Below, one piece after another: positions 4,211-38,346 of a stretch of DNA of 64,000 nt (the first letter of the stretch is position 1; each line of letters begins with the position of its first letter). A model generated the notes under the pieces. The model ran no database searches and was not told the DNA's origin. It saw only the letters and a list, made by a program, of their open reading frames with translations. The position numbers were made by a program, and so were the translations under genes. The stretch covers positions 64,952 to 128,951 of the forward strand of contig NZ_CAKSZA010000001.1 in the NCBI RefSeq assembly GCF_934525195.1. Direction: 5' to 3'. The DNA comes from an uncultured Eubacterium sp. Its GTDB lineage: Bacteria; Bacillota; Clostridia; Oscillospirales; Acutalibacteraceae.

Positions 4211-5877
4211 CAGAAAAGACCTACCGTATCGCCGTTTTCGTCAATATCAATTCTATAAGCGGCAGGAGATTTTGAAAGTCCCGGCATAGTCATAATTGAG
4301 CCTGTTTGGCAAACAATGAAGCCTGCACCGTTTGAAAGTGTTGCACTTGAAACAGTAATTCTGAAGTTTTCAGGCTTGCCGAGAAGTTTTGGATTATCGG
4401 AAAGGCTATACTGTGTTTTTGCCATACACACAGGCATTTTGTCTGCGCCCAATTTTACAAAGCCGTCAATCGCATTTCTTGCTTCTTTTGTAAAATCAAC
4501 GCCGTCTGCACCATATATTTCTTTTGCTATTGTTTCAATCTTTTCATAAACAGGCATATCAAGGTCATAAAGGCAGTGGAAGTTATTTTCCTTTTCGCAA
4601 GCCTCAACAACCTTTTGAGCAAGTTGGGTTCCGCCTTTGCCACCCTCGGCAAAGCATTTGGTTACTGCAAAATCAGCGCCCTTTTCCTTGCAATACTGTT
4701 CGATATAATCAATTTCTGCCTGGGTATCGGCATAAAAATGATTGATTGCAACAACAACGGGAACACCGAATTTTTTGAGGTTATCAATATGAGCACCAAG
4801 GTTTACGCTGCCCTTTTTGAGTGCTTCAAGATTTTCTTCCTTGAGGTCGTCCTTTGCAACTCCGCCGTTATACTTCATTGAACGAACTGTTGAAACCAAG
4901 ACGATACAAGACGGAGCTAAGCCGGCGAAACGGCACTTAATATCCATAAACTTTTCAGCACCGAGGTCTGAACCGAAGCCCGCTTCGGTAATTGTATAAT
5001 CCGCAAGTTTGAGTGCAGTCTTTGTTGCACGAACAGAGTTACAGCCGTGTGCAATATTTGCAAACGGACCGCCGTGCATAATTGCAGGAGTATTCTCAAG
5101 AGTTTGCACAAGGTTTGGCTTGATGGCTTCCTTGAGGAGAACGGTCATAGCACCGTTTGCCTTGATGTCCTTGCAATAAACAGGCTGACCGTCAAATGTG
5201 TAAGCGACAAGAATATTGCCGAGCCTTTCCCTTAAATCAAACAAATCGGAGGCAAGGCAAAGGATTGCCATAACCTCGCTTGCAACGGTAATACAAAAAT
5301 GGTCCTCACGAGGAATACCGTTAAGTTTTCCGCCGAGCGAATTGATAATATTACGAAGTGCACGGTCGTTCATATCAAGGCAACGCTTAACCTGAATTCT
5401 TCTTGGGTCAATATTGAGTTCATTACCCTGCTGAATAGAATTGTCAAGCATTGCACACATCAAGTTGTTTGCCGATGTGATTGCGTGCATATCGCCTGTG
5501 AAATGAAGATTGATATCCTCCATAGGCACAACCTGCGAATATCCGCCGCCTGCTGCACCGCCTTTAATACCGAAAACAGGACCGAGTGACGGCTCACGAA
5601 GTGCGATAATCGCTTTTTTGCCGATTTGACTCATAGCTTCGCCGAGACCGATAGAAACCGTTGTTTTGCCCTCACCTGCCGGTGTCGGATTAACTGCGGT
5701 TACAAGAATGAGTTTGCCGTCCTTTTTATCTTTTAATCGTTCCATAACAGAATCGGATATTTTTGCTTTATAGTGACCGTAAGGGTCTATTTCATCAGAC
5801 GAAATGCCGAGAGAAGCGGCAATTTCGTTAATGTCCTTCATTTTTGCGTTTTGAGCAATTTCAATATCTGTGAGCAT
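4210..5877 (-). CDS. fhs: Formate--tetrahydrofolate ligase
   Basis: 555 aa with [10 protein letters not shown], typical FTHFS length and conserved blocks. Confidence 0.97.
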
Positions 5878-6017
5878 AGGTTATCTCTCCATATTTATTA
5901 GTGCAATATATTATAACACATATTGCAAAACATTCCAACATAAAAATTTATTATTTATATTGAAAAATAGGAGAATACATAATATAATAAATATATTACT
6001 GCGAAAGGAGGATTGCG

Positions 6018-7199
6018 ATGGCAACCACGGCAGTTGATTCAAACAGACTAAAACAAAAAAACTCAATATGGACGCTGATTAAAGGTACGGACTTTGTTAC
6101 AATGCTCACGGCACTTTCGGCATCAATCTACGGACTTATGCTTGTGTACAGCGCATCGTATTCTTCGCTTTCAGGCGGACGAGTTATATCAAGCGATGTC
6201 AGGTCAATGCTTGTTTCGATTATAATCGGCTTTGTTATTTCTATTGCAGTTTCAAACATCGACTATGATGTTATTTCAAAGCTATGGCCGATTATCGCCG
6301 CAGGCTGTGTCGGACTGATGATTTTTACATTCTTCTTTGGCGTTGCACCCGAAGCACGACCCGATTCAAAATGTTGGATTGACCTCAAAGTTTTTTATTT
6401 CCAACCGTCGGAGCTATTAAAAGTAGGATTCATCATTTCGTTTTCCTACCATCTTGATTTGGTCAGAGATAAAATAAACAAGCTGAAAACGATTATTCCG
6501 CTTGTTATCCACGGTGCAATCCCTGTCGGTCTTGTTCTCCTTACGGGTGACGCAGGCTCGGCACTTATCTTCCTCGTTATGTTCATCGGTATGCTGTTCC
6601 TGTCAAGGGTTAATATCGGCTACTTCATTGCAGGCTTTTGTGCGATATTCGTTGGTTTTGCGGTTGCTTGGAAAACGGGCATAATTGACGGTATTCAAAG
6701 GCAGAGAATCGTTGCTTTGTTCTACCCCGAACAATACGCAGACGCTATGTATCAGCAAACAAACGGCAAAATCGCAATGGGCTCGGGCGGACTTTTCGGA
6801 CAAGGCTTTTTGCACGGAAATATGACGCAGAGCGGTGCGGTTCCCGTTAACGAAAGTGATATGGTGCTTACCGTTGCAGGTGAAGAATTTGGATTTGTCG
6901 GCACAATGGCAGCTCTGCTGATTTTGTTCTTCCTTGTTTTGAGAGTTATCAAAATCGCAATGAACGCAAGAGATAATGTTGGATATTTGATGTGCGGAGG
7001 CATTGCTGTTATGCTGTTTGCACAGATACTCGTTAATGTCGGCATGGAGTTGTCGCTTTTGCCTTGTATCGGTATCACGCTTCCGTTGTTCTCGGCAGGC
7101 GGTTCAAGTTCATTGTGTATTTATTTGGCGCTCGGAATTGAATATTCAGTGTACAGATTTTCACGGACGCCGAGAGAAACATTGTTCTATACAAAATAA
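6018..7199 (+). CDS. FtsW/RodA/SpoVE-family peptidoglycan glycosyltransferase (SEDS)
   Basis: 393 aa, about 10 TM segments, SEDS-type blocks (GEEFGF.G, LPLFSAGGSS), AAGGAGG RBS. Confidence 0.85.
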   Translation: MATTAVDSNRLKQKNSIWTLIKGTDFVTMLTALSASIYGLMLVYSASYSSLSGGRVISSDVRSMLVSIIIGFVISIAVSNIDYDVISKLWPIIAAGCVGLMIFTFFFGVAPEARPDSKCWIDLKVFYFQPSELLKVGFIISFSYHLDLVRDKINKLKTIIPLVIHGAIPVGLVLLTGDAGSALIFLVMFIGMLFLSRVNIGYFIAGFCAIFVGFAVAWKTGIIDGIQRQRIVALFYPEQYADAMYQQTNGKIAMGSGGLFGQGFLHGNMTQSGAVPVNESDMVLTVAGEEFGFVGTMAALLILFFLVLRVIKIAMNARDNVGYLMCGGIAVMLFAQILVNVGMELSLLPCIGITLPLFSAGGSSSLCIYLALGIEYSVYRFSRTPRETLFYTK

Positions 7200-7236
7200 A
7201 AATGACTCTACGATATTTCGGTATCGTAGAGTTTTT
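7199..7236. repeat. Direct repeat copy 1 (38 bp, identical to 8493..8530); contains the rodA terminator hairpin
   Basis: aaaatgactctacgatatttcggtatcgtagagttttt occurs identically at both loci. Weaker similarity continues about 100-190 bp to the right. Confidence 0.9.
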
Positions 7237-7238
7237 TT
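7206..7238 (+). terminator. Rho-independent terminator of the SEDS gene
   Basis: 9-bp stem ctctacgat/atcgtagag followed by T7. Confidence 0.8.
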
Positions 7239-7524
7239 GTTTGTATTTGCCTGCGGGAGGATAATATCCTCCCCTACAGTTATTAAGCTTTGCTTTTAAT
7301 ATGCAAAGTAGTGTGCAACTTCATCGTAGTACCCTACTTTTTCTACGCAATCTATACACAAAGTACAGACAGTATTCCTTACAATAAGTGAAGCCTTAAC
7401 AAAACTATTTATTTTGTTTTTACAGCTTTTTTGGGTGACCATTTACCATAATAAGTTTTATTTGAACCATTAATGTTGACTGTTTTATATGTACGAATAC
7501 GAACATAATAATTCTTTTTTGATT

Positions 7525-8190
7525 TTAAACTTTTGATTTTTTTGACGAAGAACTGCTTGAAAGATTAATTGTTTTTGCAGATTTCATATTTTTATTTGTA
7601 CTGTATTGAAGTTGATAGCCTGATACATCAGAACACTTTGAATAATATATTTTTAATAACTTTTTTCCGGGTTTTGTTTTAGAAATATTTGCATTAGGGA
7701 AAACCGGATTATACTTTAATTCAATATCATAAGTTCCGGTTAAATAACTAGCACTATAACCGTCACCATAATTATATACAAGAAAATAATTTCCCTTTTT
7801 TAGCGAAATTGTATTATTACTAAAATATATACCTCTGCCAGAATCAAATTTATATGAAGGTTTATAATAATCTGCTATATACGAAGAAGTATCATTTTCA
7901 TTATATAAATATATTGTTGGCCAATAAAAATAATCGTCATCATCAGTTTCAATATGAATTGTCACATTTCCATTTTCCGAAACATTAAATTTAAAAGCAT
8001 CCGCATACCCATTATTCTTATATGCATCTGAAGCTTTACTATAACTTTCCGAGAACACAGTATCCAGCTCAACAGTTTGTGCCATATCTATCCAACCGGC
8101 GGCATATGCAGATAAATTGCAAACTGAAAATGATGATATGCACATTATTGTTGCCATAATTACGCTTAATAAATTTTTTGTTTTTTTCAT
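7525..8190 (-). CDS. Secreted protein with a PPC-like beta-sandwich region; the reading frame is interrupted at a poly(A) tract (see findings)
   Basis: Signal peptide MKKTKNLLSVIMATIMCISSFSVCNLSAYAA. The ORF stops at 7525, but the -1 frame continues to 7409 and encodes the expected end of the C-terminal module (NYYVRIRTYKTV...YYGKWSPKK). Confidence 0.7.
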   Translation of the reverse strand: MKKTKNLLSVIMATIMCISSFSVCNLSAYAAGWIDMAQTVELDTVFSESYSKASDAYKNNGYADAFKFNVSENGNVTIHIETDDDDYFYWPTIYLYNENDTSSYIADYYKPSYKFDSGRGIYFSNNTISLKKGNYFLVYNYGDGYSASYLTGTYDIELKYNPVFPNANISKTKPGKKLLKIYYSKCSDVSGYQLQYSTNKNMKSAKTINLSSSSSSKKSKV

Positions 8191-25071: not shown

Positions 25072-26130
25072 TTATTCCTCCGAATTATCTAAAAATTGAT
25101 TAAATCCTTTTGAAAATGTTTTGTTATATTCCTTATCAACCCACACGGCTTCTATTCCGTCAAGGCTGTCAACAAGATTTTTGCCGTCCTCAATAGTCAT
25201 ATTAAACAACGCAGTTGACATTGTATCGCCGAATGACGAATCCTTGCAAATCACCGACACGCTCGCCATATATTCGCTCGGCATAAGTGTTTCGGGGTTG
25301 ATTATATGGCAATATTTTTTGCCGTCAACGGTGTAGTAGCGTTGATAATCACCGCTTGTTACAATGCACTCGTCCGTGATATTGAGTTTTAGCAAGAAAT
25401 CATCCGAAGTAGTATCGGGATTTTCTATGCCGATAGTCCATTTTGTTTTGCCGTCATCGTTTTTATAGCCGAAAGTCGAGACATTTCCGCCGATTGAAAT
25501 AGCGGCGCTTGTCCACAAATTGCTCTTTGCCCAGTCTGAAATCTGTTGAACGGCATAGCCTTTGGCGATAGCACCGACATCGAGTTTCATCTCAGGGTCT
25601 TTAAAATAAACGGTATTATTATTCTTGTCTATAACAAGATTGTTAATATCGGTATGCTTGCTTGCTTCTTTAAGTTTCGACATATCGGGAAGCTTCGCTT
25701 CCTCGGGATTTGCAATGCCGTAATCCCTCTCGTTATGCCACAATTCAAGAACCGTGCCCATACAAATATTCACTTTACCCTGAGTGGTGTTATAAATTTC
25801 TTTGCCGTAATTGAGCATATCAATTATTTTCGCATCAACCTTTACAGGAGCTTTGCCTGCAAGTTTGTTGACATTATAAAGATTTGTTACACCCTCGTAT
25901 TCCTTATAAATATCGAACAGTTCATCATAGGTTTTAAGTTCATCATAAAACCGCTGATAATTGCGGTCGAACACTTCCTGACTGTTGTCATAAGCGATAA
26001 CAGTTGAAGCGGTATCGAAAAGGTCAAGGAACGACGCTTTATATTTTTCCTTTGCTTTGACAGAATTGGAGCAAGAAGCGAAAGCAACAGCAACCGCAAA
26101 AGCCAAAAACAGCGACATTATTTTTTTCAT
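25072..26130 (-). CDS. apbE: FAD:protein FMN transferase (ApbE), lipoprotein
   Basis: Lipobox AFASC, with GAIAKGYA, TSGDYQRY and HIINP blocks. The start at 26130 is chosen for the signal peptide; no clear SD precedes it. Confidence 0.88.
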   Translation of the reverse strand: MKKIMSLFLAFAVAVAFASCSNSVKAKEKYKASFLDLFDTASTVIAYDNSQEVFDRNYQRFYDELKTYDELFDIYKEYEGVTNLYNVNKLAGKAPVKVDAKIIDMLNYGKEIYNTTQGKVNICMGTVLELWHNERDYGIANPEEAKLPDMSKLKEASKHTDINNLVIDKNNNTVYFKDPEMKLDVGAIAKGYAVQQISDWAKSNLWTSAAISIGGNVSTFGYKNDDGKTKWTIGIENPDTTSDDFLLKLNITDECIVTSGDYQRYYTVDGKKYCHIINPETLMPSEYMASVSVICKDSSFGDTMSTALFNMTIEDGKNLVDSLDGIEAVWVDKEYNKTFSKGFNQFLDNSEE

Positions 26131-26258
26131 AAATAATATTATAACAGAAATTCGGCAACAATTCAACCACTATAATATATTTATTATATATAAAACAAAT
26201 AAATATGTTCACAAATATATTCAAAAAAAGGTTTCCAAAAGCAAACGAAAAACTTTAT

Positions 26259-27415: not shown

Positions 27416-28213
27416 TTAATATTTCTTAATTATCTTTCTTGGACACTTTTCGGCACATTTACCGCAAGAAGTACATTTTTCGTAATCAATCTTTGCGATG
27501 TTATCAACCACTGTGATAGCTCCTGCCTCACAAACCTTTTGGCAAATACCGCAAGCGATACAACCTGCTGTGCAGGCATCTCTTACATCCTTGCCCTTTA
27601 CATGTGAGAAGCACTGAACACGATAATGTGATTCGGCAGGAACAAGCTCGATAAGCTGATGAGGACAAATCTTTACGCACTTGCCACAAGCAATGCAAAG
27701 GCTTTCGTCAACAACGGCTTTCTTGTCGATAATACGAATTGCACCTTCAGGGCAAACTCTTGCGCAAGAGCCAAAGCCGAGGCATCCGTATTTACAAGCA
27801 TACGGGCTTGAACCCGGCATAATTGAAGCTGCCGTACAGCTGTCAATGCCGATATAGTTATAATCAAGAGTTCTCTTGTCGCTGTTACCGTCACACTTTA
27901 CATATGCAACCTTGCGAGTCATTTCGCCAAGTTCCGCACCCATAATTTTTGCAACTTGTTCCGCAACAGGCTTGCCGCCGACAGGACAACCCGAAACCGG
28001 AGCTTCGCCTGAAGCGATAGCGTGAGCAAGAGCATCGCATCCTGCATAACCGCAACCACCGCAGTTACTGCCCGGAAGAACCTCTCTGACCTTTTCTTCT
28101 TTTTCATCTACTTCTACATGAAAAACTTTTTCTGCAATGCCGAGGGCAACGCCGACAATCAAACTGATGAGGCAAACAATACCAACGGCAATTAAAATCT
28201 CTTTAATATCCAT
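27416..28213 (-). CDS. rnfB: Rnf complex subunit B (polyferredoxin)
   Basis: N-terminal TM segment, CGGCGYAGC motif, and several CxxCxxCxxxCP 4Fe-4S motifs. Confidence 0.92.
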   Translation of the reverse strand: MDIKEILIAVGIVCLISLIVGVALGIAEKVFHVEVDEKEEKVREVLPGSNCGGCGYAGCDALAHAIASGEAPVSGCPVGGKPVAEQVAKIMGAELGEMTRKVAYVKCDGNSDKRTLDYNYIGIDSCTAASIMPGSSPYACKYGCLGFGSCARVCPEGAIRIIDKKAVVDESLCIACGKCVKICPHQLIELVPAESHYRVQCFSHVKGKDVRDACTAGCIACGICQKVCEAGAITVVDNIAKIDYEKCTSCGKCAEKCPRKIIKKY

Positions 28214-28228
28214 AAAGCTCCTTTCTGC

Positions 28229-28807
28229 TTAAGCAAAAGCATTGAAGCCGTAGAATGCAATAGACATAAGGCAAGCAGTCATAAGAACCGCAGGTGTGCC
28301 CTTGAAGCATCCCAAGAAATCATTGTTTTCTGTTTTTTCACGAACACTTGCCATAATAACGATGGCAACAGTAAAGCCTAATGCAGTGCCGAAGCCTGTA
28401 ACAACGCTTGTAATTACATCGTTTGACTGCTGAACATTTGTGAGAGCAGTACCCAAAACCGCACAGTTTGTTGTGATAAGAGGAAGGTATACACCAAGGC
28501 TCTTATAAAGTGACGGAACAACCTTTTTGAGGAAAGTCTCAACAAGCTGAACCAAGAATGCGATTACAACGATGAATATAATAGTTTTTAAATACTCTAA
28601 ATGAAGCTTTACAATAACATATTTATAGAGTGCACTTGAAACAAGTGACGAAAGAGTGATAACGAAAATTACCGCTCCGCCCATACCTGCGGCAGTTTTG
28701 GTGGATTTTGAAACACCGAGGAACGGACAAATACCCAAGAACTGACTGAGAACAACATTGTTGATGAGTGCTGTTGTAATCAGAACCAAAAACAACTTTC
28801 CTGCCAT
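28229..28807 (-). CDS. rnfA: Rnf complex subunit A
   Basis: 192 aa, 6 TM segments, LSQFLGICPFLGVS. Confidence 0.92.
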   Translation of the reverse strand: MAGKLFLVLITTALINNVVLSQFLGICPFLGVSKSTKTAAGMGGAVIFVITLSSLVSSALYKYVIVKLHLEYLKTIIFIVVIAFLVQLVETFLKKVVPSLYKSLGVYLPLITTNCAVLGTALTNVQQSNDVITSVVTGFGTALGFTVAIVIMASVREKTENNDFLGCFKGTPAVLMTACLMSIAFYGFNAFA

Positions 28808-29470
28808 TTACTTGCCCTCCTTTTCTGCCGACGGACATTGTGCACAGTTGCCTGTACAACCTGTCTTTTTCTTTTCTTTCTTGCTTACGCCGAGTTTGTT
28901 CATCAAAGCGCAGAGAAGTGAAAGCACCAAGAATGCACCCGGAGCAAGAATGAAGAGTGAAATAGGCTCATAGCTTTCAGTCAATACACGAAGTCCGAAA
29001 ACTGTGCCGTTGCCGAGGATTTCTCTGATGATACCGATAGTGGTAAGACCGATTGTGAAACCGATACCGATACCGATACCGTCAAAAATCGAAAGCACAA
29101 CGCTATTCTTCGAAGCATAAGATTCCGCTCTGCCGAAGATGATGCAGTTTACAACGATGAGAGGGATGAAAATACCCAAACTGCTGTAAAGCGGAGTGAG
29201 AAATGCATGCATAAGCATTTCTACAATAGTTACAAATGAAGCAATAATAATGATATAAACAGGCACTCTTACGCCGTTTGGAATAACCTTACGCAAAAGA
29301 GAAATAATCATATTTGACATAATGAGAACTGCCATTGTGGCAACACCCATACCAAGACCGTTGAGTGCGCTTGTTGTTACCGCCAAGGTCGGACACATAC
29401 CAAGCATAAGCACAAAGGTAGGATTTTCCTTGATGATACCGTTATAAAGTCTTTCTAAAATACCCTTCAA
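28808..29470 (-). CDS. rnfE: Rnf complex subunit E, with a Cys-containing C-terminal tail
   Basis: NPTFVLMLGMCPTLAVT, 6 TM segments; the tail reads ...KKKTGCTGNCAQCPSAEKEGK. Confidence 0.9.
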   Translation of the reverse strand: MKGILERLYNGIIKENPTFVLMLGMCPTLAVTTSALNGLGMGVATMAVLIMSNMIISLLRKVIPNGVRVPVYIIIIASFVTIVEMLMHAFLTPLYSSLGIFIPLIVVNCIIFGRAESYASKNSVVLSIFDGIGIGIGFTIGLTTIGIIREILGNGTVFGLRVLTESYEPISLFILAPGAFLVLSLLCALMNKLGVSKKEKKKTGCTGNCAQCPSAEKEGK

Positions 29471-29487
29471 AAAAATCTCCCCCTCTC

Positions 29488-30126
29488 TTACTGTGCCTGT
29501 GCGGAATCCGCACCGCCGAAGTTTGCTTGATAGAAAGCAATACCGGCATTGACCGCCTCTGTTACGGCATTTGTTGTGATTGTTGCACCTGAAATTGCAT
29601 CAATCTCCGTATCAGCCGTAGCACCTGACTTTGTATAGCTCAAAGTTTGTGCCGGCTTGCCCTTGAACTGATTTTGGAAATCAGGATCTGCACATTTTGA
29701 GCCGAGACCTGCTGTTTCGCTGTTGCTGATTACAGTAAAGCCTGTAAGCTTGTCGTCCTTGATACCGATTGCAACCTGAATTTCACCGCCGTAGCCGTTT
29801 GGTGAAGTTGAAGCAATGATATAGCCCTCTGTGTCGCCGTTTGATGACTTAACTTCAAGAGCGTCTGTTACAGCACAGCCTGCAAGGCCGTTTTTGTCAA
29901 AAAGTTTTGTTGATTTTTCAATCATTTTGTCGAGTCCGTCAACCTCGCCGAACTCTGTGGCATCGGCATAAACAACTTTATAAGCCGCTGCCTTTTGATT
30001 AATTTCCGCCTGTTCGATAGGACCTTTGGTAATTTGGTTTACAACAGCCAAAGCCGCAACGGCAACCAAGGTGATAATAACCAAAACCAATGTGTTTTTG
30101 AACAAGCCTGATTTTTTCTTTTCCAT
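29488..30126 (-). CDS. rnfG: Rnf complex subunit G (FMN-binding)
   Basis: N-terminal TM segment and the canonical flavinylation motif EIDAISGATITTNAV. Confidence 0.92.
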   Translation of the reverse strand: MEKKKSGLFKNTLVLVIITLVAVAALAVVNQITKGPIEQAEINQKAAAYKVVYADATEFGEVDGLDKMIEKSTKLFDKNGLAGCAVTDALEVKSSNGDTEGYIIASTSPNGYGGEIQVAIGIKDDKLTGFTVISNSETAGLGSKCADPDFQNQFKGKPAQTLSYTKSGATADTEIDAISGATITTNAVTEAVNAGIAFYQANFGGADSAQAQ

Positions 30127-31163
30127 TACTGTGCATCTCCTTTCGCTTTAACTGAGCCGAAAGGCTTTGGAACAGTTATTTTTTCAATCAACGGAACAAG
30201 AAGGTTGCAAATGATGATTGCATATGAAACGCCCTCTGCCGATGAGCCTACAACTCTGAACATTGCTGTTACGAAGCCGAGAAGCACACCGTAAAGGAGT
30301 TGTCCCTTTGGAGAAATCGGGCTTGTTACATAGTCGGTTGCCATAAAGAATGCACCAACAAGAAGTCCGCCTGACAAAGCCTCGCTCAAAAGGTAATTTA
30401 CAGTTACTGTGTCACCCTGAACAAGTCTGATAATTGCGATGAACGCAACAGTTGAAAGAATATATGTACCCGGAATACGGATTGAAATAACCTTTTTGAT
30501 AAGGAGATATGCGGCACCGATCAAGATAGCCAAAGCCGAAACCTCACCGATGCAACCGCCGTGCATACCGAGGAAAAGTGATGTCAAATCAAGTTCTTTG
30601 CCGTCACCGAGCTGTGCAAGAGGAGTTGCACCTGCCACAGCGTCAAGTGCGGTGTCTGTCTTGCCTGCAAGGAGATAAAGACAATCTTTGATTTTGCCGT
30701 CCTTGAAAAGTTCGGCAAATGATGCGCTGTATACCTTATACATTGCAAAGTCGCTCATTTTTGCTGCGAACGAAATGAGAAGGAAGCATCTTGCAGCGAG
30801 TGCAGGGTTCATAAAGTTCTGACCCAAGCCACCGAAAAGCATTTTTACAATAATGATTGCAAAGCCGCTACCGAGAACAGGTATGTACCAAGGCACACTT
30901 GCAGGAAGGTTAACAGCCAAAATAAGACCTGTTACCAACGCACTGTTGTCAAAAATTGTAATCGGTCGCTTTGTGATAACTTCAAAAAGAAGCTCAAAAA
31001 GAACACTTGATACAACGCAAAGAACGGTTACGAACAATGCCGGAAGGCCGAAATGGTAAATACCGAATGCAAGAATCGGCAAAAGTGCCAAAGCAACATC
31101 GCCCATAATTGTTTTGGTGCTGTCCTGTGTTCTTAAATGCGGAGATACCGAAACATTATACAT
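30126..31163 (-). CDS. rnfD: Rnf complex subunit D
   Basis: 345 aa, polytopic, DAVAGATPL motif. Confidence 0.92.
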   Translation of the reverse strand: MYNVSVSPHLRTQDSTKTIMGDVALALLPILAFGIYHFGLPALFVTVLCVVSSVLFELLFEVITKRPITIFDNSALVTGLILAVNLPASVPWYIPVLGSGFAIIIVKMLFGGLGQNFMNPALAARCFLLISFAAKMSDFAMYKVYSASFAELFKDGKIKDCLYLLAGKTDTALDAVAGATPLAQLGDGKELDLTSLFLGMHGGCIGEVSALAILIGAAYLLIKKVISIRIPGTYILSTVAFIAIIRLVQGDTVTVNYLLSEALSGGLLVGAFFMATDYVTSPISPKGQLLYGVLLGFVTAMFRVVGSSAEGVSYAIIICNLLVPLIEKITVPKPFGSVKAKGDAQ

Positions 31164-31166
31164 AAT

Positions 31167-32510
31167 TTACTTTACCCCCTTTGCTTTTTGTCTGTTAAGT
31201 TCTTTTCTTACCTCTGCCTTGCCGACATTGAAAAGGTGGGTAAGAGGAATTCTTGCCGGGCAAGTGTATGAGCAACAGCCACACTGTACACATTCCATAC
31301 CGCCCAAATCCGCAAAAGCAGTGAATTTGCTCTGCTTAACAGCCTTTGCAAGCATTTGCGGAACAAGATTTGACGGGCAAACACTTACGCATCTGCCACA
31401 GTGAATACAATTTGTAGCCTCAACAGAAGCAACATCATCCTCTGTGAAAGCAAGAATAGACGCAGAAGTCTTTTGAACAGGCACATCGAGTGTGCTCATA
31501 GCAAAGCCTGTCATCGGACCGCCTGAGATAATCTTGACTGCATCTTCCTTCAAGCCGCCGCACTTTTCAATTACATACTGATGGCTACAACCGATTGGCA
31601 CTTTGAAGTTGTTGCATTGATTAACGCCGTCACCTGTTATGGTCATATACCTGTAAATAAGAGGAATATTCTCATAAAGTGCATTGTAAATCGCAAAACA
31701 TGTTGATGAGTTTACAACAACGCATTTTGCATCGGCAGGAAGCATTTTTGAATTAATCTTTCTGCCTGTTACGGCATAGATAAGTGAACGCTCACCACCC
31801 TGCGGATACTTTGTTTTAAGTTCGCAGATGTCCATATTATCATCAGGTTGAATAAAGCCCTTGATAACCTTGATTGAATCGTTCTTGTTGTCCTCAATGC
31901 CGAAAACAGCCTTTGCATTTGGCAAAAGTCTTTGAATTTGGCGAACTGCCTTGACAATCTGCTCGCCCTTTTCAAGCATAATGCGATAGTCAACGGTGAG
32001 ATAAGGCTCGCACTCACAGCCGTTGATGATGATGGTGTCGATTTCATCGGCATTTTTAGGTGACAATTTTACACCTGTCGGGAAGCCTGCACCACCCAAA
32101 CCGATAATACCGAAGTCCTTGATTTTTTGGAGAACTTCCTCAACGGTCAAATCATCGGGATTTGACTTAACACCCATTCCCTCGACTTCTTCATCAAGTC
32201 CGTCATTTTCAACAACAATGGATTTTACAAGACTGCCGTTGATTACTCTGCGGTTTTCGATAGATTTTACCGTGCCTGAAACCGAGCTGTGCACGGGTGC
32301 GGAAATAAATCCGCCTGCCTTCGCAATCATCTGACCTTTTAGCACTCTGTCACCCGGATTTACGAGTGGCTCGGCAGGTGCGCCGATATGCTGGCTCAAA
32401 GGATAAACGGTTACAGAAGAAGCATTAATTGCGGTGATAGGAAAATCTTTTGAAAGCTCCTTGCCCTCATAAAGACGAAGTCCCTTTTTTAATGCTTTTC
32501 TTTTCTTCAT
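31167..32510 (-). CDS. rnfC: Rnf complex subunit C
   Basis: 447 aa, GLGGAGFPT, two 4Fe-4S motifs (CIHCGRCVSVCP and CVQCGCCSYTCP). Confidence 0.92.
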   Translation of the reverse strand: MKKRKALKKGLRLYEGKELSKDFPITAINASSVTVYPLSQHIGAPAEPLVNPGDRVLKGQMIAKAGGFISAPVHSSVSGTVKSIENRRVINGSLVKSIVVENDGLDEEVEGMGVKSNPDDLTVEEVLQKIKDFGIIGLGGAGFPTGVKLSPKNADEIDTIIINGCECEPYLTVDYRIMLEKGEQIVKAVRQIQRLLPNAKAVFGIEDNKNDSIKVIKGFIQPDDNMDICELKTKYPQGGERSLIYAVTGRKINSKMLPADAKCVVVNSSTCFAIYNALYENIPLIYRYMTITGDGVNQCNNFKVPIGCSHQYVIEKCGGLKEDAVKIISGGPMTGFAMSTLDVPVQKTSASILAFTEDDVASVEATNCIHCGRCVSVCPSNLVPQMLAKAVKQSKFTAFADLGGMECVQCGCCSYTCPARIPLTHLFNVGKAEVRKELNRQKAKGVK

Positions 32511-32623
32511 TAAAAAACATCCTCTCTACTCTTTTAGACATAAATTTTTAATCCAACTAAATTTTATGTTTATTATAATATAGCATATTATTATAGAAAT
32601 TTCAACAGTAAAACTATACCCAA

Positions 32624-35200
32624 CTAATGATTATTTTCAATTATACTGCGAATGTTCTCCTCTGCCGATTTCACCTCGCCCTGAAATTCACGGGAGGAAA
32701 CACGAAGCGCACCGTTGCCGAGAATAATAACCTGCTCAAGAGCATCGGAGGTGACAACTCTGACCTTGTGCTTTTTTGCCAAATCAAGCGAGGCCTTTTC
32801 GATGTACATATCTGCGGTTTCTGCCTCTTTGGTGTAAACAACGGTGATGTTGTTCACCTTTTCGATTTCACGGTGATTGCCTTTGACCTTGTAGGCATCA
32901 AAAACAACAATAACCTCGCATCTCTTATACCCCTGATAATTACAGAGAATATTGATGAGTGCATTTCTTGCCCCGTCAATACTGCTGTCGGCAAGATTTT
33001 TCAAATTATCCCACGAAAAGATGACATTGTAGCCGTCAACCAAAAGATATTCGGGGCCCTCATATTTTGGAGCTTTTGGCATCTTTTTAGGGTTTGGTTT
33101 CTCAGTTTTTTCAGTAAAGGTGAAGTGGCTGTTATTTGGATTTTTGTGCTTAATTTTTCCGTAGGTTTGCTCAAAAATCTCCATAAGTTCTTTATCAAGT
33201 GCAAACAAATCGTTTTTGTCTGCATAGCTTGACATCCTGCCGACCGATTGACTTGGGGCGTACTCGCTTTTCGGTGTTGACAGTATGCTCGGCAAGTGCA
33301 TATGACTTTTGACCTCGTCCCACTTTACATTATAGCCTGCGCCCTTTGAACAGAACACGGAATCACAAGTGTTGTCGGTGTCGCTGTCGGGATTATAATC
33401 AAATTCTGCAATCACTTCATCGGCATTATGGCACGGCTCATAGCCTTTGAGAGTGCACGAAAGTTTGCCCACTCCACGGGTATACTGACGCACTGTGCCT
33501 GCATAATCGCACATTGCCGAAACGGGAGCAGAACCTGTCAAAACAGACATTTCCCCGTCCGATTCGGGAGAGTTAAAAGTGCCGTGCATAAGCTGAATAT
33601 CGGACATTGCCCTACCGACATTTTCGTTTGGAACTTCAAGAACAAAATCATAATACGGCTCAAGCAAAACACTTTTTGCACTGCGGAGTCCTTGGCGAAC
33701 GGCACGATAGGTTGCCTGCCTGAAGTCACCGCCCTCGGTGTGTTTTGGGTGTGCCTTACCCGATTTCAAGATAATTTCCATATCGGTTATCGGCGAACCT
33801 GTCAACACACCGATATGAGTTTTTTCATACAAATGAGTGAGGATGAGTCTCTGCCAGTTTTTATCGAGAACATCCTCTTTGCAATCGGTTTTGAACACAA
33901 GTCCGCTGCCTCGTTTGCCGGGTTTCAACAGCAAATGCACCTCGGCATAATGGCGGAGCGGTTCAAAGTGACCGACCCCCTCGACCGCTTCTTCAATAGT
34001 TTCTTTATAAATTATACTGCCCTTGCCAAAGGATATTTCAATACCAAATCTGTCGGCAAAGAGCGTTTGCAAAACTTCAAGCTGAATATCACCCATAAGT
34101 TTGATGTGAATTTCGGAATAACGCTCGTTCCACTCGACTTTTAACTGCGGGTCTTCTGCCTCCAAAATACGCATATCCGACAACACGGTGTGAGCGTCTG
34201 TTCCGTCGGGAACATTGACGGTATATGTCAAAACAGGGGTAAGAACAGGCATTGACGAATTATCCTCAACGCCCAAGCCGTCACCCGAATTTGTAAATGT
34301 TATGCCCGTTACGGCACAAACTGTGCCTACCGTTGCCTCATCGACAGCGGTGAATTTTTCGCCCGAATAAAGACGAATTTGATTGACCTTTTCGCCGTTT
34401 ATGTTTTTCTCACTTTTCAAGATTTCTTTCACTTTCAGCGTGCCGCCCGTGATTTTCATCATAGTGAGTCGCTGACCTTTATCCTCGGAGATTTTGTACA
34501 CCTTTGCGCCAAAATCGGAGCCGTACTGCGGTTGCTCAGTGTAATCATTGATTAAATCCATAAAGGCGTCAACACCGTCAAGTTTGAGCGCAGAGCCGAA
34601 CATACAAGGAAAAACTTTTCTGTTTTTAATTGCAGAAGCGACATCCTGTTTGCCGAGGCTGTCCTCCTCGTATTTTTCAAGAAGAACATCATCGCACAAG
34701 GCAATATTTTCGTTCAACTCATCATCGGGCAAAGTGAAGTCAACGCAACTGTCGCTCAATTTGGTTTTCAGCTGATAGAGAACAATATCCTTGTCTGCGC
34801 CGTCCAAATCGGTCTTATTAACAAAAATAAAGCAGGGCACTTTATACTTTGCAAGGAGTTTCCACAGAGTTTGAGTGTGGCTTTGAACACCGTCGGTTGC
34901 GCTGATGACCAAAATTGCGTAATCGAGCACTTGAAGTGTTCGCTCGGTTTCAGCAGAAAAATCAACATGCCCCGGCGTGTCAATAAGCGTTATATCCGTG
35001 TCCTTGTATTTAAGCAGTGCCTGCTTTGAAAAAATCGTTATTCCTCGTGAGCGTTCAAGAGAAAATGTGTCCAAAAAAGAATTTTTGCTGTCTACCCTGC
35101 CGAGCTTTGAAATAGTGCCCGAATGATACAGCATAGCCTCAGATAATGTGGTTTTGCCCGAATCAACATGCGCAAGTATGCCGACAACAATCTTTTTCAT
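32624..35200 (-). CDS. TetM/EF-G-like translational GTPase fused to a C-terminal YacP/Rae1-type NYN nuclease domain
   Basis: G1 AHVDSGKT, G3 DTPGH and G4 NKTD within a ~630-aa EF-G-like body, then a K/P-rich linker. The last ~142 aa (LLVDGYNVI...VIVVFDA...ETAD...VVTSD) match the YacP pattern. Confidence 0.85.
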   Translation of the reverse strand: MKKIVVGILAHVDSGKTTLSEAMLYHSGTISKLGRVDSKNSFLDTFSLERSRGITIFSKQALLKYKDTDITLIDTPGHVDFSAETERTLQVLDYAILVISATDGVQSHTQTLWKLLAKYKVPCFIFVNKTDLDGADKDIVLYQLKTKLSDSCVDFTLPDDELNENIALCDDVLLEKYEEDSLGKQDVASAIKNRKVFPCMFGSALKLDGVDAFMDLINDYTEQPQYGSDFGAKVYKISEDKGQRLTMMKITGGTLKVKEILKSEKNINGEKVNQIRLYSGEKFTAVDEATVGTVCAVTGITFTNSGDGLGVEDNSSMPVLTPVLTYTVNVPDGTDAHTVLSDMRILEAEDPQLKVEWNERYSEIHIKLMGDIQLEVLQTLFADRFGIEISFGKGSIIYKETIEEAVEGVGHFEPLRHYAEVHLLLKPGKRGSGLVFKTDCKEDVLDKNWQRLILTHLYEKTHIGVLTGSPITDMEIILKSGKAHPKHTEGGDFRQATYRAVRQGLRSAKSVLLEPYYDFVLEVPNENVGRAMSDIQLMHGTFNSPESDGEMSVLTGSAPVSAMCDYAGTVRQYTRGVGKLSCTLKGYEPCHNADEVIAEFDYNPDSDTDNTCDSVFCSKGAGYNVKWDEVKSHMHLPSILSTPKSEYAPSQSVGRMSSYADKNDLFALDKELMEIFEQTYGKIKHKNPNNSHFTFTEKTEKPNPKKMPKAPKYEGPEYLLVDGYNVIFSWDNLKNLADSSIDGARNALINILCNYQGYKRCEVIVVFDAYKVKGNHREIEKVNNITVVYTKEAETADMYIEKASLDLAKKHKVRVVTSDALEQVIILGNGALRVSSREFQGEVKSAEENIRSIIENNH

Positions 35201-35260
35201 TTTCTCACCTCACGATATTTTATATTAAATATAATATCATATCACGAGCCGAATGTAAAA

Positions 35261-35653
35261 TTATATTTCTATTTTAACAATATCGTCAATCGGAATTTCC
35301 GTGCCGTCAATCAAAATCCTGCGTGCAAAAGAATCTATCTTTTTTACACCGCCGACTTTGGTTACATAAGCACCGCCCGATTTGAGTTTATCGGGCACAA
35401 AATAAGTGACTGACACCTCGGCAATTTCGCCCAAATTATATGAAATATACTGCAAAGCGTCATTGAGCGCCTCAATTTCGTTTTCGTCAAGAATTACCCT
35501 TTCGTCCGTCACACGGGCAGTTTCGGCAATTTCGTCCTCAAAGCCTTTCAATGCGGCAAACGAAGCGAACTGTGCCGAGCGTTGAGCCACAGAAAGATGC
35601 GCCCTCTTGGTTGAGGTGTGATGTGGCAAAGATATAATATCGTCATATTTCAT
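35261..35653 (-). CDS. YolD-like protein (accessory to the Y-family polymerase)
   Basis: The start at 35653 overlaps the polymerase stop (ATGA) and has a GGAGG RBS. The ...SVTYF...IPIDDIVKIE pattern resembles B. subtilis YolD/YqjX. Confidence 0.7.
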   Translation of the reverse strand: MKYDDIISLPHHTSTKRAHLSVAQRSAQFASFAALKGFEDEIAETARVTDERVILDENEIEALNDALQYISYNLGEIAEVSVTYFVPDKLKSGGAYVTKVGGVKKIDSFARRILIDGTEIPIDDIVKIEI

Positions 35654-37143
35654 TCCGCCTTGTGACCTCCCACCTGATTGTTGCGTTCTATCGTTGTGGC
35701 ACATTCCTGCAAATTTGTACCTTTGAGAATTGCGTTTTTGCCGTATCGTTTTTGAATACGAAGCATAGCGTTTTGCAGGCTTCGCTCTTTTTTCAAGCAA
35801 TCTTCTTGTGCCTTTATTTTTGAATAATCGGTGAAGAAATCAAGCTGACAAATCTGCGGTTCAACCTTATTTTCATCGGTTATGTGATTTGCGGAAATAT
35901 TGACCTTGCGAACAGACAAATTCCTGTCGGCAATCCTGAAAAGCACAGCCAATGCAGTTTCAACAATTAGTTTTGACGATGAAGTCAAGCGGTTTATATT
36001 CCCTGTTCCGTGTGCGTGCTTCGGAACTTTTCTGCCGTAGCCGTCAATCGTGATTTCGCCCTTATATCCGTTTTTTACATTTTCTATATCATAGTTAAGC
36101 GTGAGCACAATTTGGTCGGTTGTAACCCCTTTGTCCACTAAATCAAGTGCAAGAAGTTCTGCCATTTCACGCACGATAACGGTTGTTTCGTCAAAGCTGT
36201 ACGGTCGGGTTAGCACCTGACCGGAGCTGATGCTTTTGGTGTCGGGCTTATACGACTTAACATCCTCAATTGTGCAAGGTTCCCAACCCCAAGCATGGTC
36301 TATGATAAGTTCGGCGTTAATGCCGAAAAGTCGATACAGCAAATCCTCGTTGTAAAATTCATTTGACGAACCGACGGAACATTTTGCAATGTCGCCCATC
36401 GTGTAAATTCCAACGCTTTCAAGCCGTTTTGCAATTCCCTTGCCGACACGCCAAAAATCAGTAATCGGACGATAATTCCACAACTTTTGACGATAAGACA
36501 TTTCGTCAAGTTCAGCAATTCTGACACCGTTTTCATCGGCATCAATATGCTTGGCAACAATATCCATAGCGACCTTGCAAAGATACATATTTGTGCCTAT
36601 TCCCGCAGTGGCGGTTATACCCGTTTCGTCAAGAACGGCTTTTATCATATTCATTGCCATTTGATGAGCGGTGATTCCCGAAGTGCGGAGATACCTCGTT
36701 GCATCAATAAACACCTCGTCAATCGAATAAACCAAAATATCTTCGGGCGACACAAAGCTTGAATATATGGCAAAAATCCTGTTGCTGTATTTTTTGTAGA
36801 GATTCATCCGAGGCGGAGCAACGATATACGACAGTTTCAGTTCGTTATCCGTCAACTCATCTGCGTTGTAAGATTCGCCCTTAAATTCGGCATAATTATT
36901 TTTCAATTTGCGATTATTATTGACCTGACGGACACGCTCAACAACTTCAAAAAGTCTTGCTCTGCCCGGAATACCGTACGCTTTAAGCGACGGAGAAACG
37001 GCAAGGCAAATGGTCTTTTCCGTTCTGCTGTCATCAGCGACAACAAGATTGTTTTTCAGCGGGTCAAGCCCACGTTCAACGCACTCAACAGAGGCATAGA
37101 ACGACTTTAAATCTATTGCAATATATGTTTTTTGCTTTGCCAT
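35650..37143 (-). CDS. Y-family (UmuC/UvrX-like) translesion DNA polymerase
   Basis: YIAIDLKSFYASVE catalytic motif, SIDEVFID, 497 aa. Confidence 0.88.
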   Translation of the reverse strand: MAKQKTYIAIDLKSFYASVECVERGLDPLKNNLVVADDSRTEKTICLAVSPSLKAYGIPGRARLFEVVERVRQVNNNRKLKNNYAEFKGESYNADELTDNELKLSYIVAPPRMNLYKKYSNRIFAIYSSFVSPEDILVYSIDEVFIDATRYLRTSGITAHQMAMNMIKAVLDETGITATAGIGTNMYLCKVAMDIVAKHIDADENGVRIAELDEMSYRQKLWNYRPITDFWRVGKGIAKRLESVGIYTMGDIAKCSVGSSNEFYNEDLLYRLFGINAELIIDHAWGWEPCTIEDVKSYKPDTKSISSGQVLTRPYSFDETTVIVREMAELLALDLVDKGVTTDQIVLTLNYDIENVKNGYKGEITIDGYGRKVPKHAHGTGNINRLTSSSKLIVETALAVLFRIADRNLSVRKVNISANHITDENKVEPQICQLDFFTDYSKIKAQEDCLKKERSLQNAMLRIQKRYGKNAILKGTNLQECATTIERNNQVGGHKAE

Positions 37144-37300
37144 AAAAATGCCTCCATATAGATATTATTAGTTACTGAAAACATTATATCACACAAAAAG
37201 CAAAAATCAATACAAATGTTCGATTTTTGTTTAAAAGAGAAAATTTTGGTACAATTAAGCAATAAAACAAAAGCACATCAAAAGATGTGCAAAAAGTAAA

Positions 37301-37334
37301 ACAGCAACCACCAAATGGTGATTGCTGTTTTTTT
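37301..37334. terminator. Strong hairpin plus T7 (copy A of a duplicated module)
   Basis: acagcaa.cacc-aaat-ggtg.ttgctgt stem followed by T7. It shares its core CACCAAATGGTG with the hairpin at 37501-37522. Confidence 0.6.
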
Positions 37335-37351
37335 GTGCGTAGACGGGACTT
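37335..37351 (-). repeat. Remnant copy of the tRNA-Leu 3' end
   Basis: gtgcgtagacgggactt compared with gtgcgagagacgggactt at 37531-37548, each directly following the hairpin and T7. Confidence 0.6.
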
Positions 37352-37492
37352 TCGTCAAGATACATTCCGTGTTCAAATTCTTTTGCGAGCAAAAGAACAA
37401 CAAACACTACATATATCTTTCCTCTCCCCACAAAGTCTAACGGACTTTGCGGAGACCCCATACAAGACAATTCAAATCATACATCTCATAGC

Positions 37493-37529
37493 AAAAAAAA
37501 GTAGACACCAAATGGTGTCTACTTTTTTT
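37493..37529. terminator. Bidirectional hairpin terminator downstream of tRNA-Leu (copy B)
   Basis: A8, then a gtagacacc/ggtgtctac 9-bp stem, then T7. Confidence 0.75.
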
Positions 37530-37613
37530 GGTGCGAGAGACGGGACTTGAACCCGTACGAGTCGCCCCACACGCCCCTCAAACGTGCGCGTCTGCCGATT
37601 CCGCCACTCTCGC
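37529..37613 (-). tRNA. tRNA-Leu (anticodon GAG), with encoded CCA
   Basis: Manual fold of GCGAGAG...CTCTCGCACCA: 7-bp acceptor stem, T-arm ACGGG-TTCAAGT-CCCGT, anticodon stem CACGT/GCGTG with loop TTGAGGG, and a long variable arm. 85 nt. Confidence 0.85.
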
Positions 37614-37692
37614 GTCAACAGTTAGAAGTATAACAGAACCGGCTACAAATGTCAACACTTTTTTTAAATTTTTTTAAAGTTTTTTTGACCGC

Positions 37693-38346
37693 TTAAAATA
37701 AGCTTGATATGTAGCTCGTTTCGTCTATTATCACGGACGGATGCTCGGCAAAAAGAGTTTCGAAAGACCTGAAGCCCCAAGAGCAACCTACTGCTTCTAT
37801 ATTGGCATTTTTGGCTGTTCGCATATCAACCTCGCTGTCGCCGAAGAAAATTGCCTCTGTCGGCTTGCAATCAACTGCCGAAAGTGCTCTCAAAGTGGTT
37901 GTCGGGTCGGGCTTGGTCGGAAGTCCGTCTATGCAACCTGTGATGAAATCAAAAAATCCTTTGCCGAAAATATGCTCAACCATACCATGAGCAGCAATGT
38001 CGGGTTTGTTTGAAACAACGCAAAGTTTCACTCCCATATCCTTGAGAATTTGGAGTTGCTCCTTTATGCCGTCATAAGCGTGAGCATGGTCAAGCTTGAT
38101 TTCGTCATATATAATCTTAAATTCTTCGTATCTTTCATTAAGTGTTTGCTCGTCCAAAGTATGATTGAAAGCCCGCTCAACAAGTTTTTTTGCACCGTTG
38201 CCAACAAACTTTTTGTAATCATCCAAAGACCAATTAGCTTCAAAGTTATGCTTTTTAAGCAAGATTTCGGTTGCACCTGCCAAATCATCAATAGTGTTGA
38301 CAAGTGTGCCGTCCAAATCAAATATTGCACATTTAATTTTGCTCAT
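37693..38346 (-). CDS. HAD-IA family hydrolase (phosphoglycolate phosphatase-like)
   Basis: FDLDGTLVNT motif I, SNK motif, GDSEVD motif. The start at 38346 overlaps the end of potD by 14 nt. Confidence 0.85.
   Translation of the reverse strand: MSKIKCAIFDLDGTLVNTIDDLAGATEILLKKHNFEANWSLDDYKKFVGNGAKKLVERAFNHTLDEQTLNERYEEFKIIYDEIKLDHAHAYDGIKEQLQILKDMGVKLCVVSNKPDIAAHGMVEHIFGKGFFDFITGCIDGLPTKPDPTTTLRALSAVDCKPTEAIFFGDSEVDMRTAKNANIEAVGCSWGFRSFETLFAEHPSVIIDETSYISSLF

Follow-up and report, generated by a model that had tools for sequence, protein, structure and literature searches.

The DNA analysed here is a 64,000-nucleotide stretch (hereafter the window) of contig NZ_CAKSZA010000001.1 from an uncultured Eubacterium sp., and its central element is a gene on the minus strand that encodes a translational GTPase covalently joined to a Rae1/YacP-type NYN nuclease domain. 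The gene occupies positions 32624..35200 as a single open reading frame (ORF) of 858 aa that starts with ATG, runs without interruption and ends with the stop codon at 32624..32626; the coordinates of all its parts given below refer to the minus strand. A Pfam profile search places six domains in this one ORF. The G domain (residues 4-222, 34535..35191; GTP_EFTU, E 9e-51) is followed by the β-barrel of domain II (residues 232-310, 34271..34507; EF-G_D2, 29.7 bits against a cut-off of 27), domain III (residues 321-392, 34025..34240; EFG_III, 31.7 bits against a cut-off of 27), the A-site-probing domain IV (residues 395-509, 33674..34018; EFG_IV, E 7e-17) and domain V (residues 511-592, 33425..33670; EFG_C, E 4e-19). 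A conserved C-terminal extension of the GTPase module (residues 593-641, 33278..33424) and a tether (residues 642-716, 33053..33277) then lead to the Rae1-type NYN_YacP domain (residues 717-858, 32627..33052), whose Pfam match (PF05991) covers residues 719-856 at E 4e-50 and 170.5 bits against a cut-off of 24.6. An initial annotation of the locus had described an uninterrupted 858-aa ORF with the GTPase hallmarks AHVDSGKT, DTPGH and NKTD, a length fitting domains II-V, and an NYN part at nt 32627-33052. The translation contains all three motifs, the GTP_EFTU, EF-G_D2, EFG_III, EFG_IV, EFG_C and NYN_YacP profiles all score, and the nucleotide range is exact for residues 717-858.

The fusion of the two modules is not a product of the assembly. 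An identical protein is encoded on at least seven contigs, and the four displayed come from different samples (ENA, Logan assemblies) and have identical neighbours. Since the same protein recurs with the same neighbours in different samples, mis-assembly, a concern raised by the initial annotation, is excluded. In addition, more than 120 protein clusters share 96-100% identity with the window protein and every one is 858 aa long, with one cluster at 97% identity bearing the name Eubacterium coprostanoligenes. The homologous ORF is unbroken in 80 of 80 other species genomes (median 869 aa), where short copies occur only at contig ends. More distant relatives were collected with a HMMER scan over 1.84 billion representatives of clusters at 50% identity, of which the best 150 were considered, the last of these still scoring 657 bits. 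Both modules are present in 145 of these best 150 representatives, so that the family comprises at least 145 clusters at 50% identity. The suggestion that an adjacent Tet-like GTPase gene and yacP were merged by a sequencing or assembly error, or by a recent frameshift, is ruled out by the independent assemblies, the uniform cluster length and the 80 unbroken orthologous ORFs, and we give it practically no credence.

The family is widespread in Clostridia. A scan of one genome per species with the family peptides GH[FY]EPL[RK]HY and KHT[ED]GGD[FM] gave 600 matching stretches, of which 599 were confirmed, so that at least 599 species genomes carry a family member, and the best 80 all run through the nuclease. 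The taxa represented include Ruminococcus, Oscillospiraceae, Acutalibacteraceae, Faecalibacterium, Flavonifractor, Intestinimonas, Blautia, Dorea, Herbinix and Peptostreptococcaceae, and Agathobacter is among the dominant human gut genera that carry it; Desulfitobacterium is added by a published list (PMC4342817). Forms that lack the NYN domain number 4 among the 120 closest relatives of one such protein, and the nearest relatives of that protein are fusions of about 900 aa with 61% identity to it. Because NYN-less forms are this rare, the GTPase subfamily is essentially always fused to its nuclease. A separate NYN-less GTPase subfamily, which would have served as a Rosetta-stone partner of stand-alone Rae1, is not supported by the same two observations. 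As a side observation, the best match to residues 400-858 in the one-genome-per-species collection has 70% identity, as against copies at 97-100% in public assemblies, and the species of the window is seemingly absent from that collection or masked in it.

The architecture is not new, having been known in print since 2015. Atkinson 2015 (BMC Genomics, PMC4342817) listed proteins that combine Tet and NYN_YacP from clostridial genomes, giving ten species in the text, and proposed testing their RNase activity, and Matelska 2017 (Nucleic Acids Research, PMC5499597) described TetM-NYN_YacP fusion proteins in Clostridia. Over its full length, the window protein is 51-56% identical to seven sequences of Atkinson's Additional file 8, from Ruminococcus albus, E. 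eligens, E. rectale, Butyrivibrio, C. cellulolyticum, C. thermocellum and Desulfitobacterium. It shares with the published fusions an identical architecture and common motifs in domain IV, the extension behind domain V and the NYN domain, and differs from them in nothing essential, its tail being short. As judged from these alignments, the window protein is an orthologue of the published family of Tet-like GTPases with NYN_YacP. Both publications are bioinformatic throughout and do not settle the function. In keeping with the initial annotation, which had heard of no functional characterisation, the searchable full-text literature yielded no functional study of the fusion, and the 2025 and 2026 Rae1 papers, to which this check was confined, make no mention of a GTPase, TetM or Clostridia.

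The C-terminal domain closely follows B. subtilis Rae1. The fusion C-terminus aligns to residues 3-136 of the YacP/Rae1 chains 5MQ8/5MQ9 with one 1-residue gap (E 4.5e-26), and the nuclease domain is 45.9% identical to B. subtilis Rae1 over 133 aa. NYN_YacP proteins are defined by a first Asp that is followed by GYN and by an active site of four Asp residues (PMC5499597). In the window protein, D722 (D-GYN), D768, D797 (ETAD) and D819 (TSD) are in register with LVDGYN, FDAH, ETAD and TSD of 5MQ8, the motif at D768 reading FDAY. The initial assignment of the C-terminal ~142 aa to a Rae1/YacP-type NYN domain, acidic active-site residues included, is therefore upheld by both PF05991 and the alignment to 5MQ8/5MQ9. 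Family-wide, D722 is kept in 144/145 sequences, D768 in 145/146, D797 in 143/145 and D819 in 146/146, and the GYN motif is near-invariant too. The AlphaFold2 (AF2) prediction of the domain is confident, with a predicted local distance difference test (pLDDT) score of ~90, and includes one long helix (residues 836-857) at the C-terminus, the region in which Rae1/YacP proteins characteristically carry two helices with conserved basic residues. Rae1 and the fusion thus have in common the NYN_YacP fold, the D-GYN motif and the four catalytic Asp residues. They differ in that Rae1 is a 170-aa single-domain protein encoded in a cysS-mrnC-rlmB(yacO)-yacP cluster (PMC5499597) that associates with ribosomes only transiently (PMC13622287), whereas the nuclease of the fusion is the C-terminal quarter of an 858-aa GTPase, lies at an unrelated locus and is without profile positions 141-166. 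No second NYN copy was found in the window or in the 80 loci fetched from other species. Separately, stand-alone genes named 'NYN domain-containing protein' occur on Clostridioides difficile records of roughly 97-150 kb that are filed as plasmids. Their products are Rae1-like and 44% identical to the nuclease of the fusion, and several of the records come from single-cell assemblies and may be chromosome fragments.

The GTPase module is equally intact. Its G domain (AF2 pLDDT 80-96) carries G1 AHVDSGKT, switch I RGITI, G3 DTPGH with His78, G4 NKTD and G5 GSAL, and domain II is confidently predicted as all-beta. Across a conservation set of 151 family sequences, drawn from clusters at ≤50% identity, G1 AHVD[AS]GKT, switch I, DTPGH, NKxD and G5 are near-invariant, and His78 is present in 148/149. 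G1-G5, the catalytic His of DTPGH and domains II-V together place the protein in the translational GTPase superfamily. Since G1-G5 and the nuclease Asp residues are near-invariant, the alignment indicates that the catalytic centres of both enzymes have been kept by purifying selection. The most conserved domain, above the G domain, is domain IV, with a median identity of 62% to the window protein and 20% of its positions at least 95% conserved. Its two tips carry family-specific motifs in the family alignment. The first, GHFEPLRHYAEV (residues 410-421), stands where TetO has PPNPFWASVGL and EF-G has SGGRGQYGDVHI, and the second, AHxKHTEGGDFR (residues 483-494), where TetO has YYSPVSTPADFR and EF-G has SYHDVDSSEMAFK. 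In the window protein itself, KAHPKHTEGGDFR aligns with the TetO sequence YYSPVSTPADFR and EPLRHYAEVHL with PPNPFWASVGL, and the EF-G loops SGGRGQ and SYHDVDSSEMAFK are not kept. The strong conservation of domain IV, together with its family-specific tips, suggests that the GTPase reads the decoding centre and is therefore more than an anchor.

These features bear on whether the protein is a tetracycline ribosomal protection protein of the TetM/TetO type, in which the GTPase would free the A site of tetracycline and an accessory RNase would add a second resistance activity, as suggested in 2015. Consistent with such a role, TetO is the best match in a PDB sequence search (248 bits), tet_protect is the best NCBIfam model, the profile hidden Markov models of Atkinson assign these proteins to the Tet subfamily (PMC4342817), and the NCBI annotation pipeline (PGAP) calls some members TetM/TetW/TetO/TetS family proteins. 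These matches fall well below the curated cut-offs, however: tet_protect (NF012153) scores 416.5 bits against a cut-off of 775, the TetM/W/O/S model (NF033148) 285.4 against 1100 and the Tet(M) model 241 against 1420. EF-G follows TetO closely in the PDB search at 239 bits, and the EF-G models are likewise below cut-off (TIGR00484, 305.4 against 659.4; NF009381, 345.4 against 583). The tip loops of domain IV are the elements that Tet proteins use to dislodge tetracycline (PMC4342817), and in the family the drug-dislodging TetO loop is swapped for the near-invariant AHxKHTEGGDFR while the other tip loop differs as well. Further, the gene belongs to the core chromosome in at least 599 species, with neither a mobile-element nor an otherwise conserved context, and the 60-nt gap upstream of it is too small for a leader attenuator of the tet(M) style. 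The cut-offs, the tip loops and the genomic setting together led us to reject a classical tetracycline protection protein, a role that we consider highly unlikely.

On this evidence the GTPase is best described as a distinct subfamily of the EF-G/Tet clade. Of the label TetM/EF-G-like GTPase in the initial annotation, the five-domain EF-G/Tet architecture stands, and "TetM-type" is loose given 416 against 775 bits and the different domain IV tip loops. Like TetM and TetO (3J9Y, 4V6V), the window protein is a five-domain EF-G paralogue of comparable length with a short G' region, and the same ribosomal site and a release by GTP hydrolysis are presumed for it as well. It differs from them in scoring below the family cut-off, in its domain IV tip loops, in lying off mobile elements and in its C-terminal addition of 266 aa. 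The names given to the family by NCBI are inconsistent, and include 'translation factor GTPase family protein', 'NYN domain-containing protein' and 'TetM/TetW/TetO/TetS family tetracycline resistance ribosomal protection protein' (an example of a family record is Agathobacter rectalis NZ_CP143948.1, 6093-8894 of the fetched locus). Because members miss the curated cut-off, the last of these names is probably a false resistance call, and such labels can inflate resistome counts.

The predicted structure separates two confidently folded modules. The AF2 model, built with 101 aligned homologues, has a mean pLDDT of 84.4 and is confident for residues 1-641 and 717-857, and its Foldseek match to ribosome-bound EF-G extends across about 685 columns (E 1.6e-54). 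The extension behind domain V (residues 593-641), delimited by its conservation and a pLDDT of 85-92, folds in the model as helix, beta-hairpin and helix, carries the motif SVFCxHGAGxxVxW..V..MH and is also kept by the rare NYN-less relatives. In the 151-sequence set, C590, C617 and H635 (window 33296-33433 for residues 590-635) are each ~88% conserved; H619 is found in 72% of the sequences and is Lys in the window protein. The group C590/C617/H635 may form a metal-binding or structural cluster. The tether that follows was assigned by low pLDDT and lack of conservation. Its pLDDT is below 50 at residues 642-673 and 679-713, with a weak helix at 662-680 that carries a semi-conserved ELxxIFExTYG, and it is predicted to be disordered in the window protein. 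Among 141 members, 57-191 aa (median 85) separate residue 636 from the beginning of the NYN domain, and the tether is unconserved, with a mean top-residue frequency of 0.18. In 89% of members, the 40 aa that directly precede the NYN domain carry a net positive charge. The initial annotation had described an ~80-aa Lys/Pro-rich linker at this place. A tether does exist, but it is Lys/Pro-rich only in its last ~30 aa, and residues 593-641 belong to the folded extension.

The gene has no operon partners and lies in ordinary core chromosome. The window encodes formate-tetrahydrofolate ligase, RodA, a CCA-adding-type enzyme, GH38, phosphoglucomutase, GroEL, RlmL and ApbE, then rnfCDGEAB, the fusion gene, a YolD-like/Y-family polymerase cassette and tRNA-Leu, and finally a HAD hydrolase, an ABC importer, a Mur ligase, CdaA and NadE. 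When the ORFs of the 80 loci from other species were clustered all against all, no neighbouring family occurred in more than 11 of the 80, and the most frequent were generic MATE and ABC transporters at variable positions. The association with a helix-turn-helix gene that is mentioned by Matelska 2017 (PMC5499597) is not general among the 80 loci. The 64-kb window holds a single copy of the fusion, as does each of the fetched loci.

This setting can be compared with that expected of a toxin or defence effector, which would be inactive until a stress or phage signal and would then shut off translation by global mRNA cleavage on ribosomes. RelE-like ribosome-dependent mRNases behave in this way, a role of Rae1 against phage mRNA has been speculated upon in a 2026 preprint (PMC13622287), and tblastn with the C-terminal 265 aa finds family members in two 'Bacteriophage sp.' records. 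The one of these that was examined, MT835563.1 ('UNVERIFIED: Bacteriophage sp.'), encodes an 875-aa family member (5397-8024 of the fetched locus) beside NAD(P)H-hydrate dehydratase, a peptidoglycan-binding protein and a citrate transporter, and given its UNVERIFIED label and these non-phage neighbours it resembles a fragment of a bacterial chromosome. Full-length matches on plasmids lie on large replicons with housekeeping genes, a 518-kb Monoglobus replicon and a 252-kb Agathobacter rectalis replicon, the latter non-mobilizable with housekeeping genes beside the fusion. Carriage by phages or plasmids was accordingly rejected. PADLOC gave nothing significant, its sole match being LeoA (E 0.009, 13 bits), and a conserved antitoxin, immunity or sensor neighbour is absent in the 80 genomes. 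The single copy per locus and the housekeeping surroundings also argue against a toxin. A defence system was rejected for want of a PADLOC match and of a conserved partner gene, and we regard a shut-off effector as very improbable. The fusion is a lone housekeeping gene, and neither a mobile resistance determinant nor part of a defence island.

We propose, with a probability of roughly 0.5, that the fusion is a GTPase-anchored, tethered mRNA endonuclease that acts on stalled or collided ribosomes as a housekeeping mRNA-surveillance factor of Clostridia. In its GTP form, the protein would dock in the factor-binding site of a stalled or translocation-blocked ribosome. The constrained domain IV would probe the decoding centre and thereby select one stalled state, for which a vacant A site, a blocked A site or a collided ribosome unable to translocate are the candidates. 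The NYN nuclease, on its disordered basic tether, would cut the mRNA on its way into the GTPase-bound ribosome. If the GTPase sat on the trailing ribosome of a collided pair, the cut would fall between the two ribosomes, where stand-alone Rae1 also cuts (12 nt upstream of the stalled A site). The sarcin-ricin loop would then trigger GTP hydrolysis at His78 and so release the factor, and the truncated mRNA would enter trans-translation and decay. Ribosome binding, the state selected, the RNA that is cut and where, and the connection to transfer-messenger RNA (tmRNA) are thus our inferences, and we find the geometry of the proposed mechanism more doubtful than its outline.

The placement of the cut departs from the initial annotation, which had suggested GTPase-guided delivery of an A-site mRNase. 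In ribosome structures, domain IV of EF-G/TetM-type factors fills the A site. An attached NYN domain therefore could not cut there and would have to work from the far end of its tether of 57-191 aa. The view of Rae1 as an established A-site cutter is also outdated, as the same laboratory moved its cleavage site in 2025 to 12 nt upstream of the stalled A site. Rae1 acts on the mRNA of stalled or collided ribosomes, and its cuts feed into the tmRNA pathway (PMC12407103; PMC13622287), the tie to collided ribosomes and tmRNA being drawn in the 2026 preprint (PMC13622287).

Several points weigh against this proposal. TetM-type factors favour non-rotated ribosomes whose A site is empty, whereas collided ribosomes are believed to be in the rotated state with hybrid-state tRNAs. 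Ribosome binding, GTPase activation and the RNA substrate are extrapolated from homologues of the fusion. The NYN match spans profile positions 1-140 of 166, and the final basic helix of stand-alone YacP proteins is absent in the window protein, whose tail after residue 840 is 19 aa long in a family range of 0-59 aa; some members of the fusion family retain this helix. Finally, there is no structure of ribosome-bound Rae1, its binding being transient (PMC13622287), so the proposed geometry cannot be checked against one.

The choice of mRNA as the substrate must also be set against a GTPase-guided nuclease that acts on rRNA or tRNA, either in ribosome maturation or in the inactivation or turnover of damaged or idle ribosomes. 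GTPases are common among ribosome-assembly factors, rRNA surrounds any nuclease that hangs from a ribosome-bound factor, and the tether is basic. NYN_YacP was, moreover, first predicted to process rRNA or tRNA on the basis of its operon with mrnC and rlmB. Against this, Rae1, which has 46% identity and is the sole nuclease of its family to have been characterised, is an mRNA endonuclease for which the Rae1 papers report no rRNA activity (PMC12407103, PMC13622287). The fusion has the full five-domain layout seen in factors of the mature 70S ribosome, its A-site domain is under strong constraint, and linkage to rRNA-processing genes is absent in the 80 genomes. We therefore consider cleavage of rRNA or tRNA unlikely.

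Proposed as an mRNA endonuclease on stalled ribosomes, the fusion has parallels in known systems. SmrB in E. coli, Cue2/NONU-1 in eukaryotes and MutS2 in B. subtilis likewise rely on a separate recognition module that targets a nuclease, or a domain resembling one, to ribosomes in a stalled or collided state, and in MutS2 such a domain is also joined to an NTPase (PMC13622287). These proteins differ from the fusion in using an SMR fold in place of NYN, in recognising the disome interface and not the factor-binding site, and in having no translational GTPase. In Hbs1-Dom34/Pelota and other A-site factors brought in by a GTPase, a translational GTPase picks the stalled ribosome and delivers an effector, as would be the case here. 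The effector of those systems, however, is a separate, non-nuclease tRNA mimic carried by an EF-Tu-type GTPase, whereas that of the fusion is covalently attached to an EF-G-type GTPase.

The fusion offers a practical way to learn how Rae1 finds ribosomes that have stalled or collided, and it could show whether bacteria have a GTPase-gated form of no-go decay. A broader version of this idea, which we hold only tentatively, is that no-go-type mRNA cleavage in most gut and rumen Clostridia may be carried out by a dedicated translational GTPase with a covalently tethered Rae1 nuclease, in which the GTPase reads the decoding centre of a ribosome that has stalled or cannot translocate and GTP hydrolysis licenses or times a single cut in the entering mRNA. 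If that version is true, the fusion would be the first natural translational GTPase to carry a catalytic effector, and would represent in stable form the short-lived Rae1-ribosome complex whose structure has been so hard to obtain. The gene belongs to the core genome of at least 599 clostridial species, with the dominant human gut genera Faecalibacterium, Ruminococcus, Blautia, Dorea and Agathobacter among those represented, and its role, whichever it is, would thus be part of mainstream translation quality control in the gut microbiome. The fusion family has been published and is functionally uncharacterised, and the recent work on Rae1 and collisions makes it timely. To the published description we add the size of the family, its obligate fusion, the lone core-gene context, the conservation pattern, the tether and the sub-cut-off Tet score.

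The immediate flanks of the gene agree with the initial annotation, which had placed it alone between the rnf operon and a translesion-polymerase cassette. The complete rnfCDGEAB operon (27416-32510) lies on the same minus strand, with rnfC starting at 32510, 113 nt downstream of the fusion stop codon, and a gene for an ApbE flavin transferase is located near it (25072-26166, minus strand). Directly upstream of the fusion gene, the translesion cassette (35261-37143, minus strand) comprises a Y-family polymerase of 497 aa with IMS domains and a small ORF that overlaps the polymerase end. The latter resembles YolD only weakly (21 bits, where the cut-off is 27.5), and public assemblies give it a length of 130 aa. 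No terminator-like site was found between the cassette and the fusion gene, and read-through into the fusion gene is therefore possible; the linkage of the two is not conserved across the 80 loci from other species.

The signals ahead of the fusion gene, all on the minus strand, include a Shine-Dalgarno-like GAGGTGA at 35205..35211, read directly from the sequence 5 nt ahead of the ATG at 35200. A promoter-like TTTACA-17-TATTAT with a TG extension (35231..35259; consensus scan and sequence reading) falls inside the 60-nt gap behind the preceding gene, and the consensus scan gave a second candidate, TTGACG-18-TATAAT, at 35289..35260. Both promoter candidates are consensus matches only, to which we attach no functional weight. 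A scan of positions 31000-38000 against Rfam for a regulatory RNA or leader gave one tRNA and nothing else. A tRNA-Leu(GAG) gene lies on the minus strand at 37529-37613, between the genes for the HAD hydrolase and the Y-family polymerase, and is followed by two terminator-like hairpins (37331..37273, minus strand).

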